Source: an uncultured Gemmatimonadaceae bacterium
Lineage (GTDB): Bacteria; Gemmatimonadota; Gemmatimonadetes; Gemmatimonadales; Gemmatimonadaceae
Assembly (NCBI GenBank): GCA_963790305.1
Contig: CAWBOC010000009.1
Coordinates: 640,001-704,000 of the forward strand
Reading direction: 5' to 3'
Length of the DNA: 64,000 bases
Each line of letters begins with the position of its first letter. Position 1 is the stretch's first letter. Below are positions 17,853-29,750 of this stretch, piece by piece. The translations under genes and the position numbers were made by a program. Below the pieces are notes generated by a model. It was not told the DNA's origin and searched no databases. It saw nothing but the letters and a program-made list of their open reading frames with translations.

Positions 17853-20149
17853 TCACTCCGGCAGCTTGAAGGGATCCTGGATACGGGTGGTGTCGCGAGG
17901 GCGGAGGCGCCCGGTGTCGCTCGGACGTGCGGGCTGCGGCATCGGGACCGCACCCGGCGTCACCCGTCCTTCCATACCGGGTGCGGCTGGATTGGGATTG
18001 ACCGGAACCAGCGCGCCGGTGCTGTCCGTCTGGAACATCGTGAACGGTGAATGCACGTCGCACTCCCGCATCGGCTCGGTGCCGGGGATGAAGAACTCCG
18101 TGCTCACGACCTCCCGCGGACAGAAGGGATTCTGCAGCAGCCCCGTGGAACGATCGACCTCACGAACGATGAGCCCTTCCGGGCGCGGCCAGTCGGGCGG
18201 CGCCGGCTTCGTCTGATAGACCTCGGTCATGAACGCCGTCCACGCCGGCGCGGCGAGCAGACCGCCCTGCGCGTTCGACTTGATCTTCTGCGGGCTTGTC
18301 GAAGCCCCATCCAGACGCCGGCGACGAGATCGGCGGTGTAGCCGATGTACCAGACGTCGGTGCCGTCGTTCGTCGTGCCGGTCTTGCCGGCCGCACGGGA
18401 CGCGGAAGCCCGATCCCCAGACGGCGCTGTACGCCGTGCCGCGACGGACGACGTCCCTCATCATGTCCATCATCAGCCACGCTTCCTCCGCGCGACAGCA
18501 CTTCCGTGCGCGTCGGCGTCGGGCTCCCAGAGCACATCGCCACGCGCGTTCTCGACGCGCAGGATCGCGTTCGGCTGCGCCCGCACGCCTAGCTTCGCGA
18601 AGGCGCTGTACGCGGCGACCATCTCGAGCGGATAGACGACGGCGGCGCCGAGGTGGATCGACGGATAGGGCGGAATCGGCGTCGTGAGGCCGAAGCCGCG
18701 CGCCATGTCGATCACCGTGCCCTCGCCGAGCTCCATGCCGAGCGCGACCGTCGCGAGGTTGCGCGACATGTACAGCGCGCGGCGCATCGGCATCGGTCCC
18801 TCGAAGCGGCCGTCGTAGTTCTGCGGGGTCCAGTCTTCGCCGCCGATCTGCGGCACCATGATCGGCGATCGTCCTGCACGATGTACGACGGCGGGCGCCC
18901 ATTGCGGACCGCCGCGGCGTACACGATCGGCTTGAACGTCGAGCCCGGCTGCCGAAGCGCCTGCGTGGCGCGATTGAACTTCGAGTCATCGAAGTCGCGG
19001 CCGCCGATCATCGCGCGGACGGCGCCGTTGCGCGGATCCATCGCGATGAACGCGCCCTGGAGATACGGCGAATTCGCTGCCTCGCCATTCTCGTTCGTTG
19101 CAGCCTGCGCGAGATACTTCTCGTACGTCATGTGCCGGTAGCGCGCCGTACTTGCCGCTCTCCACCGCCTTGAGCTGCCGCTCCAGCGCGCGCTCGGCGG
19201 CGGACTGCATGTCGACGTCGAGCGTCGTGAAGACGCTGCAGTCCCTGCTCGTACAGCTTGCGAGCCGAACTGATCGTCGAGCTGACGCCGCACCCACTCG
19301 ACGAAATACGGCGCCATGTCTCCCGCTTCCTCGCGTCGCGCGAGCTGAAGCGGGAATGCCCGCGCGAGCGCTCGCGTCGGCCTGATTGACGATCCCTTCT
19401 CGGCGCATCAGCTCGACGACGGTGTTGCGTCGCTGGATCGCGCGCTCGGGATAGCGCCGGGGATTGTACCGCTCGGGCGCTTTCGGCAGCGCGGCGAGCG
19501 TCGCCGCCTCGGCCAGATTCAGGTCGCGAACGGACTTGCCGAAGTAGCGCTGCGAGGCGGTCTCGACGCCGTAGGCGCCGTTGCCGAGATAGATCTGGTT
19601 GAGATACAGCTCGAGGATCTTCGCCTTCGGGTATTTCGACTCGATCTGCCGCGCGACCTTGGCTTCCTTGAGCTTGCGCGTGAGCGTCTTCTCCCGGGAG
19701 ATGCGCTCGGGAAAGACGTTGCGGGCGAGCTGCATGGTGATCGTCGAGAATCCCTGCGCGTAGGAACCGCTCAGGACGTTGCGACCCGCCGCGCCGGCGA
19801 CGCGGACCCAGTCGATGCCGGCGTGGTCGTAGAAGCGCTTGTCCTCGGTGATGACGAAGGCATCACGCACGTGGTTCGGAATCTCGTTCAGCTTGACGAG
19901 CGTGCGCCGCTCGAGACCGATCTCGGCGATGAAGCGGCCGTCCGCGGCATAGAGCTTGGACGTCTGCTGCGGTGTCCACTCGTCGAGCACCTGAATGGAG
20001 GGGCACGCCCCGCCACGACAGATGAGCGCCCACGCCGCGTACGCGAGGCCGGCGACGAAGGCGAAGACAAAGGTGACGGAGAGGCCAGTGGCACGCGCGA
20101 GGCGGGGGCGCGAGCGCCAAAAGCGGCGCGAGAATGGCGAAGCGGCCAT
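17853..20149 (-). CDS. Class A penicillin-binding protein (PBP1A family), broken by multiple frameshifts that are probably sequencing errors
   Basis: Transglycosylase motifs [24 protein letters not shown] and RKLKE; transpeptidase motifs QPGSTFK, SRN and (G)KTGTT lie in different frames. Confidence 0.85.
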
Positions 20150-20232
20150 GGTGTCGAAGAAGCTACACTCGTGGTTAGGGCGCGGCAACGCGCGCTACTG
20201 ACGCGCGCGAACCGATTCTCTATCTTTCGGAA

Positions 20233-21507: not shown

Positions 21508-22669
21508 TCACACTTCGCGCACGAGCAGGGCCAGTGCGCGCTCGATCTCATCGCGCGTGGTGTAGAGGTGCGGCGAGAGACGTATGGCACCCTCGCGCAG
21601 AGCGCAGACGATTCCGGCGCGCGCGAGCTGCTCGCTGACGCGCTCGCCATTTTTCACCCGCACGGTGACGATGCCGGCACGCCGCCGAGGCTCGGCGGGG
21701 GTGATGACAATTGCTCCGGCGTCACGCAACCGCGACATCATCGCGTCGACCAGGGAGCTCACATGCGCGGCAATGCGCGTGACGCTGACATCGAGCAGCA
21801 ATTCTACGCTCGCGCAGAAGGCGGCCAGATCCTGATAGGGGAGCGTGCCGACCTCGAAGCGGCGAGCGTCGTCGTACCAGACAAGATCGTAGTCGACGAG
21901 GCGATTGAAGTCGTGCGACCCGCGCACGGCCATCCATCCGATCTCGCGTGGCTCGAGCTGTTGGACGAGATCGCGCCGGATGTAGGTGAAACCTGTTCCC
22001 CAGGGCGACAGCAGCCACTTCTGCCCGCCGCAGGCCAGGATGTCGATCTTGCAGGCGGGTGCATTCGAGCTCACGCGCGCCAACGCCCTGAATGGCATCG
22101 ACGACGAAGTAGATACCACGCTCGCGGCACGCGCGGCCAATACGCTCGAGATCGACCGTGTAGCCGCTCGCGAACGAGACCCAGGATAACGTGAGGACCT
22201 TCACGCGTGGGCGATCAAGGGCCTCGACGATCCGCTCCTCGTGAGGCAGCCCGGTCGGTGTGCAGCGAATCTGCTCGAAGGTGACGCCTTCGCGCGCAAG
22301 CGCCATCCAGGGATAGACGTTGGCGGGAAATTCCCGATCGGAGGACACGACGATGTCGCCCGAGCGAAGGGGCAGGCAGCGCGCGGCGATGTTGAGCCCG
22401 TGGGAGGTGTTCGTCGTGAGGGCAATCTCCCCCGCCGCGGCGCCAACCAGCCGCGCGGCGAGCGCCCGCGCACGATCCATGACCTCGAACTCCATTTCGT
22501 CGCTTATGCGCCAGGGCTCGCCGCGTAAGTCGTTCCAGGAGGCGAGAGCCGCTCGCGCCCGCATCGGCAGCGGACCGGTGGACGCGTGATTGAGATAGAT
22601 GCGATCCCCGCGTGCCGTCCACGGGAACTCGACGCGTCGTAAGGCTTCCAGATCGTAAGGTTCAGTCAC
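21508..22669 (-). CDS. Class V PLP aminotransferase (cysteine desulfurase/CefD-like); frameshift near 22075
   Basis: YLNHASTGP, NTSHG and VDAIQGVG in one frame; GGQKWLLSPWG and RLSPHLY in another. Confidence 0.85.
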
Positions 22670-22703
22670 GCTTGACGTAAGGCTGGGTGCGAGCAGTAGG
22701 TCC

Positions 22704-23540
22704 CTAAACGGTTCGCGGATCCAACGCATCGCGCAATGCATCGCCCAGCAGGTTGAAGCCGAGGACGGTGACGCCGATCGCGAGGCCGGGAAAGAGGGAG
22801 GTCCAGGGCGAGGATCGCAGCTGGCTCAGGTCGCGCCCGTCAGCGATCATCGCGCCCCAGCTTGGCGTCGGGGGCTGAACGCCGAGGCCGAGGAACGAGA
22901 GCGCCGCTTCCGCCATGATCGCGCCGGCCATCCCCAGCGTCGTCGCGATCACCACCGGGGCGATCACGTTCGGAAGGACGTGGCGTGCGATGATGCGGCG
23001 GTCCGACGTCCCGAGTGCGCGCGCAGCGTGGACGTACTCGAGCTGCCTGACGACGAGCACCTGGCCGCGCACCAGCCGCGCCATGCCCGCCCAACCAACG
23101 ATGCCGACCGTCACGAATACCACGATCAAGGATGGCTGCAGCGCGGCGACCATCGCGATGAGGAGCAGCAGCGTCGGAAACGCCAGCGTGACATCGGCGA
23201 GCCGCATGACCAGGTCATCGATCCATCGGCCGAAGTAGCCGGCGATGAGCCCGAGCGTCAGCCCAATGGCGAGCGCGATACTCTGAGAAATCAGGCCGAC
23301 GGCGAGGGAAATCCGGGCTCCGTACACGAGGCGCGCCCACACGTCGCGCCCCTGGATGTCGGTTCCCATCCAATGCTCGGCCGACGGCGGCTGCAGCTGA
23401 CGCAAAAGGTCGACGCGAATGGGGTCGTGTCGCGCGAGGAGCGGGGCGAGAATCGCGAGGAGCAGGAGCATCGCCACCACGATCAGCCCAATGCGCGCTC
23501 GCGTATCGCGCCGCAGACGCGCCCACACCTCGGCGATCAC
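22704..23540 (-). CDS. Peptide ABC transporter permease (DppC/OppC family)
   Basis: HWMGTDIQGRDVWARLVYGARISL; EAA loop (YVHAARALG); EAALSFLGLG; GTG start overlaps the upstream stop. Confidence 0.92.
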   Translation of the reverse strand: MIAEVWARLRRDTRARIGLIVVAMLLLLAILAPLLARHDPIRVDLLRQLQPPSAEHWMGTDIQGRDVWARLVYGARISLAVGLISQSIALAIGLTLGLIAGYFGRWIDDLVMRLADVTLAFPTLLLLIAMVAALQPSLIVVFVTVGIVGWAGMARLVRGQVLVVRQLEYVHAARALGTSDRRIIARHVLPNVIAPVVIATTLGMAGAIMAEAALSFLGLGVQPPTPSWGAMIADGRDLSQLRSSPWTSLFPGLAIGVTVLGFNLLGDALRDALDPRTV

Positions 23541-24049
23541 GACGCGGTCACCACCGCGCGTCCGCAGACGCGGACGAGCATGCACCGGGCGCATCGGCGC
23601 GGATCGTGATGATTCGGCGGCACGTCAGCGGCCGTCAGGTCGGCGCGCATGTTGGCGATCGTGCGCAGCAGCTCTCCTCGCACTCGGTCGGTGAAGTCGA
23701 TACGGAAGGTACGGTTCGCGTATCGGAGATAGCCATACCCGGCGAAGCGCGGCTCCGTTTCCTCCAGCAGCAAACAATACGCGGCGAGCTGCACGACGTC
23801 GCGCAGCCAGGGGGAATCGCTCTCGCGCGTCGGCTTGAGCTCGACCGGGGCGATCCGCCCCTGCTCCTCCACCAGATAATCAGGCTTGCCGGCGATGCCG
23901 TGACGTGGCGAGCGGAGCACGCGCGACGGACGCGAGACGACGGAATCGCTCGCGACCACGCGTCCGCGCAGCCCGGAGCGCCGGAGCAGCATCACGCTCA
24001 GGATCCCCAGCACGATCGCGACCGCTACGACCGCGAGCACGATCATCAT
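23537..24049 (-). CDS. Cas4-like PD-(D/E)XK nuclease, C-terminal half, with an N-terminal TM anchor
   Basis: GKPDY (motif II), VELK (motif III), QLAAY and C-terminal CARC-x5-C; hydrophobic N-terminus; ATG 24049 overlaps the upstream TGA. Confidence 0.8.
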   Translation of the reverse strand: MMIVLAVVAVAIVLGILSVMLLRRSGLRGRVVASDSVVSRPSRVLRSPRHGIAGKPDYLVEEQGRIAPVELKPTRESDSPWLRDVVQLAAYCLLLEETEPRFAGYGYLRYANRTFRIDFTDRVRGELLRTIANMRADLTAADVPPNHHDPRRCARCMLVRVCGRAVVTAS

Positions 24050-24306
24050 CGCCAGGTGCTCCATGCCAGCGCCGCGAGTGCCCCCGCCACGAGAAGCGCG
24101 GCAAGCCACCCTAACGCGCGTGCCCACCACAGCGACCACGCGTGCCGCCAATGCGCGGCGTGGCCCGCGCTGAAGCGCTTTCCTTCCGTGTCCGTTGTCA
24201 CACCCCGGACCGCGCGCAACCACCATGCGCGGCGACAATACGCGTACTCGCCCAGCTCCGAAGCCGAGATGAAGCGATCGGGCCTCGGTTCTGGTGCCGC
24301 GTTCAT
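24046..24306 (-). CDS. Cas4-like N-terminal module (first Fe-S cysteine and GxxxH) with a C-terminal TM helix
   Basis: ISASELGEYAYCRRAWWL and GHAAH match the Cas4 N-terminus; ATGA overlaps on both sides. Confidence 0.72.
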   Translation of the reverse strand: MNAAPEPRPDRFISASELGEYAYCRRAWWLRAVRGVTTDTEGKRFSAGHAAHWRHAWSLWWARALGWLAALLVAGALAALAWSTWR

Positions 24307-25232
24307 GCCGCGGGATCGCGAAGCTCGGCGGGCGTATCGGAGGGCTGGTGCTTCCAGCGCCGATGCTGCCAGAAGTACTGCTCGGGCGTCTTGCGGACCA
24401 AGCCTTCGAGGATGCGCGTGTACGAGGCCACGATGCCATCAATGTCGCTCTCGCGGTCCCCCGTCTCCTCGTAGGGCACATCCTCGAACGAGAGATGGAA
24501 GCGGCCGTCGGGCTCGCGGACGGCCGAGACGAACAGCGTCGGTGCGTGGTAGCGGAGGGTGAACACCGCGGGCCCGCGCGGCGTTTTCGCCGGGCGTCCG
24601 AAGAACGGCACGTGCGTCGACGCGAGATTGAGCACGCCCTGGTCGGCGAGAAACCCGATCGCGCGTCCCTCCTTGAGCGATCGCGTCGTTCGTCGCACGG
24701 CTTCGGCATCGTAGACGACCGTCATGCCGAGGTCGGCGCGCGTCTGGTTGAGGTAGCGATCGAAGATCGGGTTGGACATGCGTCGCACGATGACGTCGAC
24801 GGGAACCCCTCGCGCGGCAATGTACGCGCCCGAGACCTCCCAATTCCCGAAGTGACCCGCGATGAGCAACAGGCCCCGCTTCGCCTCGATCGCGCGCTCG
24901 ACGAGATCCCACCCCGTCGTCCGCGAGACGAGATCGAGAATACCCTTTCGACCGAGCGATGGCATGAGCGCCGTCTCGACGGCGAGCCGGCCGAGATGGT
25001 CGTACGAGGCGCGCGCGACCTGCGCGACGCGATCAGCGTCCCATTCGGGAAATGCGGCGGCGATCTGCCGCTCTACCACGCTTCGCCGCACGCCGAATGG
25101 TGCGTAGCCCAGGCGGCCAAGTGCGCCCCCGAGCGAGGAGGCACGTCGCCACCCAACGGCTGAGAGCGTGGCCACCGCGGCTCGCAGCCCAACGTACTCC
25201 AGCCGGTGCGCCATGCTGACGGGCCGCGTCAT
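24303..25232 (-). CDS. Lipid A biosynthesis acyltransferase (LpxL/HtrB family)
   Basis: HFGNWE, FLADQ, VPFFG and PEQYFWQHRRWK. Confidence 0.9.
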   Translation of the reverse strand: MTRPVSMAHRLEYVGLRAAVATLSAVGWRRASSLGGALGRLGYAPFGVRRSVVERQIAAAFPEWDADRVAQVARASYDHLGRLAVETALMPSLGRKGILDLVSRTTGWDLVERAIEAKRGLLLIAGHFGNWEVSGAYIAARGVPVDVIVRRMSNPIFDRYLNQTRADLGMTVVYDAEAVRRTTRSLKEGRAIGFLADQGVLNLASTHVPFFGRPAKTPRGPAVFTLRYHAPTLFVSAVREPDGRFHLSFEDVPYEETGDRESDIDGIVASYTRILEGLVRKTPEQYFWQHRRWKHQPSDTPAELRDPAA

Positions 25233-28187: not shown

Positions 28188-29750
28188 CTACCGGCGCGGG
28201 GTGAGCAACGCGATGGGGAGAATCATCTCCTCCGGAGTGGCGCCGCCGTGCAGGAAAGATCCGCGGTACCGCGTCTGATACTCGCGCAGCTTGGTCGGGT
28301 AGACGAAGAAGGAGTCGCCCGTCGCCAGCAGAATGTTGCCTCCCATCCCGCGACGCGGCAGCCGGAGGTCGTCCGAGTTGGTGAACAAGAGGGCATACTC
28401 CGGACGCTCCGCGCGCAGATCCTCGCCGAACTTGTAGCGGAGGTTCGCGGTCGCATCGCGCTTCGCGAACACGGTCGCTGGCGACAGGCAGTGAATCGAG
28501 CCGTGGTCCGTCGTGAGCAACACCGGAATACGACGCCGCTGCGCCTCACGCAGCAGCGTGAACAATCCCGAGCGCTGGAACCACTGCCGCGTGATCTGCC
28601 GGAGGGCGATCTCGTCGCGCGCGACCTCGAACAGAATGGCTGATTCGCTGCGTCCGTGCGTGAGCAGGTCCACGAAGTTGAAGACGAACGCGCCGATCCC
28701 CTCGGCCGGCAGCGCACTCGGGAGCCGCCGCACGAGATCGTCGGAGTCGGCGGCGGTCGAGATCTTCTCGTAGCGCACCGGGTAGGGCTTTCCGGCCTCG
28801 GCCAGCTGCGCCTCGAGCAGCTGCCGCTCGTGCGCGTTGAGTGTTTCGTCCTCGCGGTCGCCCCACCAATCAGGGAAGCGCGCGGCGATCTCCCCCGGGA
28901 ACAGGCCGCTGAACAGCGCGTTGCGCGAGTACGGCGTGGCCGTGGGAAGAATCGAGAAGTAGTGCGTGGTCTCGACCTCGAACATCGGCGCCAGCAGCGG
29001 CATGAGGATGCGCCACTGGTCGAGTCGCAGGCAGTCGACGACGACGAACATCGCCGCGCGCTCGCGCTCGAGGATCGGCAGCAGAAACTCGCTCACGACG
29101 TCGATCGACAGCGGCGGGCGATCCCCCTCGAGATCGCGCAACCAGCGTGGATACTCGCGGCGAATGTACGCCGCGAAGTCGCGGCGCATGTTGGGATACA
29201 TCCCCTCGAGCGACTCGTGGAGCCCCATCTCCCCGATCTGCGTCAGCTCGATGCTCCAGTCGACGAGCTCGCCGTACCGCTCGATCCATCCCCGCCAATC
29301 GAGCGCGTGGTCGCGCTCGTTCTGGAGCGCGCGAAACCGCTCGACGAATTGCCGCGCCACCGCCTGCTGTCGGATCTGCGGACCTTCGAGGATGCGTGTG
29401 ACGACGGTGAGCACCTGCCGCGGATTGATCGGCTTGACGAGGTAGTCACTGACGTTGACGCCGATCGCCTCCCGCATGGTCGTGTCTTCCTCACTCTTCG
29501 TGACCATGACGATGGGGAGCGCGGGATCGACATCGCGCAGCTCACGAAAGGCTTCCATGCCGCGCTTGCCGGGCATCTGCTCGTCGAGCAGGACGAGGCC
29601 GTACGGCCGACGCCTGAGCATCTCGACGGCATCGTCGGCGTTGGTCGCCGAGTCGACGTCGTATCCTTTGTCACGCAGGAAGATCCGGTGCGACTCGAGC
29701 AGGTCCGCTTCGTCGTCCACCCAGAGAATGCTCTTCGCGGGAGGGGGCAT
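28188..29750 (-). CDS. PorX-like response regulator (receiver plus PglZ/alkaline phosphatase domain)
   Basis: ILWVDDE, LLDEQMPG, MVTKSEE; PglZ motifs VDCLRLDQW, LPTATPYSRNALF, TDHG and HGG..PEEM. Confidence 0.88.
   Translation of the reverse strand: MPPPAKSILWVDDEADLLESHRIFLRDKGYDVDSATNADDAVEMLRRRPYGLVLLDEQMPGKRGMEAFRELRDVDPALPIVMVTKSEEDTTMREAIGVNVSDYLVKPINPRQVLTVVTRILEGPQIRQQAVARQFVERFRALQNERDHALDWRGWIERYGELVDWSIELTQIGEMGLHESLEGMYPNMRRDFAAYIRREYPRWLRDLEGDRPPLSIDVVSEFLLPILERERAAMFVVVDCLRLDQWRILMPLLAPMFEVETTHYFSILPTATPYSRNALFSGLFPGEIAARFPDWWGDREDETLNAHERQLLEAQLAEAGKPYPVRYEKISTAADSDDLVRRLPSALPAEGIGAFVFNFVDLLTHGRSESAILFEVARDEIALRQITRQWFQRSGLFTLLREAQRRRIPVLLTTDHGSIHCLSPATVFAKRDATANLRYKFGEDLRAERPEYALLFTNSDDLRLPRRGMGGNILLATGDSFFVYPTKLREYQTRYRGSFLHGGATPEEMILPIALLTPRR

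Follow-up and report, generated by a model that had tools for sequence, protein, structure and literature searches.

The 64,000-nucleotide stretch of DNA analysed here (the window) comes from an uncultured Gemmatimonadaceae bacterium (GenBank assembly GCA_963790305.1, contig CAWBOC010000009.1, positions 640,001 to 704,000 of the forward strand) and contains two small, adjacent genes, A and B, that divide between them the sequence motifs of a Cas4-type nuclease. Cas4-type "iron staple" nucleases are known as soluble enzymes or as domains of repair helicases. Here, each gene is predicted to encode a membrane protein. We consider it likely that A and B are separately translated subunits of one obligate, membrane-tethered nuclease of the Cas4 family (PD-(D/E)XK, 4Fe-4S), a reading that concerns the molecule and not its cellular role. 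The division into two genes is natural and conserved, not an assembly error, and is found in two bacterial phyla. We further infer that the two proteins assemble as a heterodimer, bind an iron-sulfur cluster, and cut DNA near the membrane in a metal-dependent manner.

Gene A carries ISASELGEYAYCRRAWWL and GHAAH, followed by a C-terminal hydrophobic helix with its Kyte-Doolittle peak at residues 64-82; read along its length, it runs MNAAPEPRPDRFISASELGEYAYCRRAWWL...GHAAH and then into the helix. Gene B opens with MMIVLAVVAVAIVLGILSVMLL-RRSGLRGR and carries GKPDY, VELK, QLAAY, and CARCMLVRVC (C-x2-C-x5-C). The match of A to Cas4 models is confined to positions 2-41 and is weak (PF12705, E = 0.0028; TIGR00372, E = 0.0097). 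B matches positions 60-178 of 180 in TIGR00372 (E = 2.1e-17, 63.6 bits, cut-off 65) and positions 53-158 of 160 in PF01930 (35.4 bits, cut-off 22.7), and PF01930 and PF12705 are its only Pfam matches. The two genes thus cover complementary parts of one domain. A preliminary description, made from the letters of this DNA, had located both genes and proposed that a full Cas4 motif set was split between them at a clean start/stop overlap. On re-reading, its coordinates and strings were correct, the ATGA overlap was found at 24046-24049, and the split of the motif set agrees with the complementary model positions.

The residues that would form the cluster and the active site are among the most constant in the family. 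A15, S16, E17, C24, W28, G48, H52, and H55 are invariant in all 28 A sequences compared, as are D40, G59, P61, D62, P73, E75, K77, Q92, L99, G111, C158, C161, and C167 in all 32 B sequences (B is numbered here in its 175-amino-acid form), with Y96 nearly so. The D, ExK, and QxxxY motifs of the Cas4 family are therefore present in B (D62, E75, K77, Q92, Y96), and the four Cas4-type cluster cysteines are distributed over two polypeptides, C24 in A and the other three (C158, C161, C167) in B. A also aligns with residues 6-48 of the type I-C Cas4 8D3L (E = 0.016), its G-x3-H lying over the corresponding motif. Parts of two reports give the metal ligands of SSO0001 as His62, Asp99, and Glu113 (PMC13621843, PMC12501428). 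Judged by its position in the alignment, H52 of A is probably the equivalent of the metal-binding histidine of Cas4. The ratio of nonsynonymous to synonymous substitution rates (dN/dS) was 0.08-0.21 for A, compared with four relatives, and 0.085-0.116 for B, compared with three; both genes are under purifying selection. We also observed that the invariant D40 of B (window positions ~23945-23947) belongs to a short V-x-S/T-D motif that follows the membrane helix and precedes the Cas4 core; this motif lies outside the region matched by the Cas4 models and is kept as well in the single-chain relatives described below.

Each protein has its predicted membrane helix close to one end. In 28 family members, only 0-9 residues of A remain after the 19-residue hydropathy window, and in 32 B sequences the window starts after 0-6 residues. 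The charges around these helices are strongly biased: lysines plus arginines number 70 before versus 16 after the helix in the 28 A sequences, whereas in the 32 B sequences the N-terminal tails have 5 and the 12 residues that follow the helix have 101. Under the positive-inside rule, this bias would orient A from inside to outside and B from outside to inside, which would place both soluble, cysteine-bearing parts in the cytoplasm and so on one side of the membrane, as the shared cluster of the preliminary description supposes.

If A and B are subunits of one enzyme, they should be found together. A near-length protein search with B returned 169 relatives, of which the best 120 were all 127-200 amino acids long. 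A HMMER search returned 1097 cluster representatives at E <= 1e-3, of which 419 had E <= 1e-10. Among the best 150 representatives, 120 were B-type (N-terminal helix, core, and CxxCx5C), 13 were single chains that also matched the A profile, 1 was a frame-error chimera, and 16 were fragments or other forms. With at least 578 relatives also found in a scan of one genome per species, the two-gene design is common. We examined the 80 best of these loci for A (16 Gemmatimonad-titled loci and 64 others, the latter nearly all titled as Chloroflexota lineages: Anaerolineae, Thermoflexales, Herpetosiphon, Roseilinea, and Chlorohelix). A lay upstream of B on the same strand in 65 of the 80; these were found by single-sequence search, and a profile built from the matches added none. 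The two genes were adjacent at 45 of these loci (overlapping by four bases at 21 and by more at 2, spaced by 2-60 bases at 18, and otherwise arranged at 4) and separated by a gap at 19 (16 of 0.6-0.9 kb and 3 of 4.3-5.0 kb); the remaining locus, L030, looks fused and has two frame errors. Five of the 15 loci with no nearby A had less than ~320 bases upstream of B, and 10 had room for it. Whole genomes were searched for five of those 10, and all five contained exactly one A match elsewhere (E from 6e-20 to 3e-28).

Evenly drawn genomes gave a similar picture. Among 201 Gemmatimonadota genomes, A was present in 3, and these same 3 were the genomes in which B was matched over its full length; the B model had 25 further matches, none of which begins before model position 31 and which resemble ordinary Cas4-type domains. 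Among 151 Chloroflexota genomes, 44 had a B-type match that included the helix (40 of them strong, E <= 2e-31), and A was detected in 38 of the 44. The only Chloroflexota genome with A and no helix-including B had a weak A match (E = 1.7e-4). Metagenome relatives of a fused archaeal protein, P0154, had A at 52 of 56 loci, 51 of them split and 1 fused. A homologs therefore co-occur with B genome by genome, even when unlinked, as the preliminary description would require of partners. One related genome also has a second, divergent B-like copy, 41% identical, at locus L013 (G020:C98:3327-3848); the matched stretch contains a TAA, and no A-like open reading frame (ORF) was detected at that locus.

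Structure models are consistent with this partnership. The model of B (predicted local distance difference test score, pLDDT, 93.2) has Cas4 chains (7MI4_A, E = 2.3e-7; 8D3L_I; 4IC1) among its top Foldseek matches, together with Dna2, MGME1, and AdnAB, and the modelled B has a Cas4/RecB-like nuclease fold. When A and B were modelled together with a 4Fe-4S cluster riding along, the interaction prediction score from aligned errors (ipSAE) was 0.82 (median of 3 runs), versus 0.00 for the best of 3 controls. Among solved complexes, 116 of 157 reach the mark applied, as do 2 of 215 mismatched pairs. At least 89% of contacts were common to the runs, and the pLDDT of the partner was at least 66. The modelled contacts join residues 8-33 of A to residues 56-60, 87-99, 132-152, and 161-169 of B, and the confident interface residues of A are 8-33, 36, and 38, so that the Cys24 region of A lies, in the model, against the cysteine-bearing C-terminus of B. 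The preliminary description had envisaged a cluster shared between two membrane proteins in a membrane-tethered heterodimer, and the homolog survey, the charge-based topology, the co-occurrence of the genes, and the complex model all support that proposal.

From these observations we propose the following arrangement. The soluble parts of A and B would come together at the inner membrane, on its cytoplasmic side, where A would give the first cluster cysteine (C24) and the G-x3-H histidine, the counterpart of the metal-binding histidine in solved Cas4 proteins, and B would give the D, ExK, and QxxxY motifs and the other three cysteines. The iron-sulfur cluster, and probably the metal site, would then be built across the A-B interface, in which case the nuclease should be active only as a pair. 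Thus, the pairing of A and B on the inner face of the membrane would be what completes this metal-dependent DNA nuclease.

Alternatively, B could be a self-sufficient membrane-anchored nuclease, with A an unrelated or dispensable small membrane protein. Parts of two published reports lend this some weight, in that cluster-less mutants of the Methanosarcina mazei solo-Cas4 (PMC12501428) and of a Leptospira Cas4 (PMC8610317) keep nuclease activity, and six of the 44 B-type Chloroflexota genomes have no detected A. However, A retains the N-terminal motifs of Cas4 with an invariant cysteine and histidine, is under purifying selection, co-occurs with B even where the two are unlinked, and docks in the model where solved Cas4 proteins have their N-terminus. 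We therefore think it very unlikely that B acts alone.

The 13 single-chain proteins among the best 150 representatives, one of whose clusters includes a Methermicoccus shengliensis protein, suggest how the split may have arisen. Their membrane insert, of two helices or of three to four by hydropathy, lies exactly between the A-like and the B-like parts, which places the cut within the outer turn of the inserted hairpin. The model of one such fused protein, P0206 (pLDDT 88.6), has a long helix at residues 37-84, a loop, a helix at 95-122, and then the core, and it superimposes on Cas4 7MI4_A with Z = 19.2 and a root-mean-square deviation of 2.5 A over 177 aligned residues. The ancestral enzyme would have been a single chain with a two-helix membrane hairpin between its N-terminal cysteine/histidine segment and its catalytic core. 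In the lineage of the window, the gene would have been cut in the outer turn of that hairpin, leaving A to run from the cytoplasm outward and B to run from the outside back in. Fused forms fall in seven places of a quick, unrooted tree, which suggests repeated fusion and fission events. Four of the longer single chains (P0221, P0269, P0262, and P0210; 324-357 amino acids) have three to four predicted helices rather than two at the split point, and they form one clade with the 276-amino-acid P0223 (support 0.99).

The four-base overlaps between A and B at many loci, together with the fused forms in other lineages, also raise the potential that a programmed ribosomal frameshift at the overlap yields one fused protein and that the two genes are only formal. 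The junctions vary, however (four-base overlaps, longer overlaps, and spacers of 2-60 bases); other DNA lies between A and B at 19 loci, including a whole L,D-transpeptidase gene at 14; and in several genomes the two genes are on different contigs. This variety of junctions, together with the unlinked pairs, excludes programmed frameshifting as a general mechanism, and we regard it as an extremely improbable account of the pair in the window.

The least credible alternative, to which we give almost no weight, is that an assembly frameshift, or the decay of an ordinary single-chain gene into a pseudogene, lies behind the split. An indel artefact at A/B nevertheless had to be excluded, because genes nearby look frameshifted in the source assembly, which comprises 13 contigs and represents a genome that is 94.3% complete. 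A class-V aminotransferase gene (window 21508-22741, minus strand) lies in two frames, with ORF 21722-22741 matching Pfam positions 1-190 and ORF 21508-22140 matching positions 187-370; an intact 389-amino-acid form exists in one relative (L020:7616-8782), and the window copy carries a frameshift error or is a pseudogene. A PBP1A-like gene (window 17853-20188, minus strand) has its transglycosylase domain in ORF 18986-20188, the last third of which is Arg/Ala-rich nonsense, and the following ORF, 17853-18989, has no Pfam match, so that at least one frame error is probable. A related long-read assembly, L030, even carries frame errors within the A/B pair itself.

To examine the junction, we compared 41 related genomes, the window's own included. 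B was matched in 12 of the 41 and in 7 of the 8 other genomes of the same genus. A lies directly upstream of B in a different frame at all nine relatives' loci that hold the junction, as it does in the window, and many of these are assemblies of hundreds of contigs. The start codon of B is at offset -1, the four-base overlap with the stop of A, at 9 of 10 loci (the window and 8 of the 9 relatives). The frame change is also present at 64 of the 65 wider loci, A and B are unlinked in some genomes, and their dN/dS values of 0.08-0.21 argue against decay. The inference of a natural split, which the preliminary description had drawn from the overlap itself, thus holds because the same frame change recurs in independent assemblies. 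The survey of homologs for one continuous ORF found no genuine case among the 16 Gemmatimonad-titled loci of the window's own clade; single chains, 13 among the 150 best representatives, were confined to other lineages. Two apparent exceptions were rejected. The seemingly single ORF of L030 contains two frame errors, and its ATGA junction is still there. P0124, the sole match in a search for longer A-containing proteins, switches frame twice and is a chimera rather than a fusion.

Several observations weigh against an obligate two-subunit Cas4 nuclease. On its own, A gives only weak matches to Cas4 models (E = 0.002-0.15 across Pfam, NCBIfam, and PADLOC), with bit scores under every model cut-off (18.1 versus 22, 12.6 versus 22.7, and 15.7 versus 65). 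The six B-type Chloroflexota genomes in which A was not detected (G229, G365, G257, G232, G245, and G347) count against strict obligate pairing, unless these genomes are incomplete or their A genes divergent, as may be the case. The complex score may stem from likeness to solved single-chain Cas4 proteins; since A and B are halves of a domain with such relatives, passing the mark shows likeness and not binding. Our own alignments and the riding ligand, moreover, fall outside the calibration of the complex tool, and neither membrane helix is among the confident contacts. No contig from public reads bridges 24046-24049 of this exact strain in the four runs searched, out of 24 listed, which leaves the junction of this strain without read-level support, and the one metatranscriptome contig found covers only 23450-23675 and speaks neither for nor against the split or its expression. 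Finally, no gene neighbourhood of the pair is conserved across the lineages examined, which makes any role a guess.

The pair shares its fold with CRISPR-associated Cas4 (PF01930, TIGR00372, COG1468; SSO0001 4IC1, Pcal_0546 4R5Q, type I-C 8D3L, and the Geobacter Cas4-Cas1 complex 7MI4), along with the D, ExK, and QxxxY motifs and the arrangement of one N-terminal and three C-terminal cysteines. Whereas CRISPR-associated Cas4 is one soluble polypeptide, however, A and B are two genes with a predicted membrane helix flanking each side of the cut, their genome lacks a detectable cas1, and B scores under the TIGR00372 cut-off and A under all cut-offs. The pair resembles solo-Cas4 in being a Cas4 homolog outside CRISPR-cas and mobile-element contexts, in the sense of Hudaiberdiev et al. 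(2017; PMC5704561). The main text of that paper describes a monophyletic solo-Cas4 group in many Chloroflexi, which may be the A/B family; in it the word "split" does not occur, and "membrane" occurs once, in a gene-name legend. The M. mazei solo-Cas4 is a soluble oligomer of ~318 kDa built from 30.7-kDa chains, in a text in which "membrane" does not appear (PMC12501428), whereas A and B are two predicted membrane proteins. The iron-sulfur nuclease domains of AddB/AdnAB, Dna2, and Exonuclease 5 are alike in having the "iron staple", a 4Fe-4S cluster that ties an N-terminal helix to the C-terminus, and they match with Z 9-13. These are domains of large soluble helicase-nucleases, whereas the staple of A and B would join two small membrane proteins. 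In the literature we found no description of a split or membrane-anchored Cas4; PMC5704561 was covered by its main text, and its supplementary trees might show the clade.

The genomic context also points to a solo enzyme. The pair is not beside cas1/cas2 and a CRISPR array; its neighbours are envelope and transport genes. The absence of cas1 and of a CRISPR array that the preliminary description had reported for the window was borne out: cas1 (PF01867) was not found anywhere in the genome, and the window has four short tandem arrays only, none of them CRISPR-like. The absence of Cas1 from the genome and of a CRISPR-like array from the window together indicate a solo Cas4-type enzyme. In Gemmatimonadaceae, the surroundings comprise genes for an MsbA-like transporter, a glycosyltransferase, a lipid A acyltransferase, and OppC, with the acyltransferase gene upstream of A at 10 of 10 relatives' loci and the OppC gene downstream at 9. 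The ATGA at 24303-24306 and the overlap of B's stop with an in-frame GTG of the OppC gene, together with the A-B overlap, suggest one translationally coupled operon; because that GTG (23540-23538) overlaps the TGA of B, the true start of OppC may be the GTG.

Outside this group, we considered two recurrent neighbours as possible components of the system. In one Anaerolineae lineage, the pair follows a TRAX/C3PO-like gene (AfTRAX 3ZC1, E = 2.8e-35), with hisS, NAD kinase, and recN-like genes downstream. The TRAX/C3PO-like gene lies directly upstream of A at ~36 of the 64 non-Gemmatimonad loci (e.g., L040:4373-5044) and stays with A where A and B are apart (L034, L039, L052, and L096). In the even Chloroflexota sample, however, it adjoins A in only 4 of 39 A-bearing genomes, and it is present in 87 of the 151 genomes overall (38 of 40 with a strong B and 49 of 111 without). 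It was not found in the window's genome, and we found no paper that joins Cas4 with translin. We conclude that its proximity is lineage-specific synteny and that it is no component of the system. In that Anaerolineae lineage, a gene for a secreted YkuD-type L,D-transpeptidase sometimes separates A from B. It occupies the gap at 14 of the 16 loci where this measures 0.6-0.9 kb (e.g., L062:5120-5914), and this candidate was likewise rejected as lineage-specific.

What, then, might such an enzyme do? At the loci examined, no conserved context favours a function on incoming DNA or in response to envelope state. Linkage to competence or helicase genes is absent in this genome: ComEC is encoded on a different contig, and no UvrD-type helicase lies within 100 kb. 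We tentatively favour, at somewhat less than even odds, the housekeeping processing of DNA ends at the membrane, and we leave the remaining probability, after the defence role considered next, to something other than DNA-end processing or defence against entering DNA.

The defence role, which seems to us rather unlikely, is that the pair cuts phage or plasmid DNA as it enters through the membrane, the tether protecting the chromosome as in SNIPE. SNIPE is a candidate only for a system that works alike: according to part of its description (PMC13190303), it has an inner-membrane anchor with the same topology (N-terminus outside, one helix, cytoplasmic nuclease), its cutting is restricted by place, and the tether, which prevents self-cutting, can alone separate foreign from self DNA. 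SNIPE, though, is one chain with DUF4041 and GIY-YIG domains, and B has no GIY-YIG match in Pfam; defence is shown for SNIPE, and for A and B the analogy is functional only. The patchy occurrence of the pair in Gemmatimonadota (3 of 201 genomes) and the presence of immune relatives within the Cas4 family would also fit defence. Set against these points, the pair is in no defence-island context; in the window, a four-base overlap ties it to the lipid A acyltransferase gene on one side, and another may tie it to the permease gene on the other, and its recurrent neighbours in other genomes are housekeeping genes. PADLOC returned Cas4 models and weak DruK matches only, with no link to a defence system, and none of 50,697 phage records matched the pair. 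The genes evolve slowly, and solo-cas4 is reportedly inherited mostly vertically (PMC5704561).

A broader reading, which we offer as speculation and hold to be distinctly improbable, is that A and B represent an old, widespread, undescribed class of membrane-embedded Cas4 nucleases with hairpin, four-helix, and two-gene forms. Cluster and active site would form only on pairing in the membrane, possibly as a switch, and the enzymes would carry out a place-restricted surveillance of DNA that touches or crosses the inner membrane, telling self from nonself by location as SNIPE does, though with the parts of a Cas4. If true, such a class might hint at the function of Cas4 prior to its recruitment by CRISPR. 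Even in the narrower reading of A and B as two subunits of one nuclease, the iron staple would join two separate membrane proteins with an active site common to both, which would make the pair a natural split-enzyme system for iron-sulfur assembly across a subunit interface and would draw attention to an activity on inner-membrane-associated DNA that is so far unexplored. Recognising the pair would also correct database annotations: B is labelled "CRISPR-associated Cas4", in genomes without CRISPR, or "Dna2/Cas4 domain-containing protein", and A-like clusters are labelled "hypothetical protein" and have no Pfam family. Since cultured Herpetosiphon strains carry the A/B pair (L076, L079), it can be tested.

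Table 1. Positions in the window of genes A and B, their parts, and the genes on either side
Feature	Position	Strand	Description
Gene A	24046..24306	-	86 amino acids; Cas4-like N-terminal segment and one C-terminal transmembrane helix; from ORF and translation
Gene A soluble part, predicted cytoplasmic	24142..24276	-	Residues ~11-55; Cys24 and G48-x3-H52
Gene A predicted transmembrane helix	24058..24132	-	Residues ~59-83, then short outer tail WSTWR; from hydropathy
ATGA junction	24046..24049	-	Stop TGA of A (24048-24046) overlaps start ATG of B (24049-24047)
Gene B	23537..24049	-	170 amino acids; N-terminal transmembrane helix, Cas4-like PD-(D/E)XK core, and three C-terminal cysteines
Gene B predicted transmembrane helix	23984..24049	-	Residues 1-22, then RRSGLRGR; hydropathy 3.17
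Gene B catalytic core and putative cluster ligands	23564..23890	-	G-K-P-D, E-x-K, Q-x3-Y, C-x2-C-x5-C
Lipid A biosynthesis acyltransferase family gene, upstream of A	24303..25232	-	PF03279, E = 4e-43; its TGA overlaps the ATG of A (ATGA 24303-24306)
OppC-type permease gene, downstream of B	22704..23594	-	PF00528 and PF12911; in-frame GTG 23540-23538 overlaps the TGA of B (GTGA)

Further upstream in the window, ahead of the MsbA-like transporter gene, a gene at 28188-29750 on the minus strand encodes a fusion of a response-regulator receiver domain with a PglZ domain.

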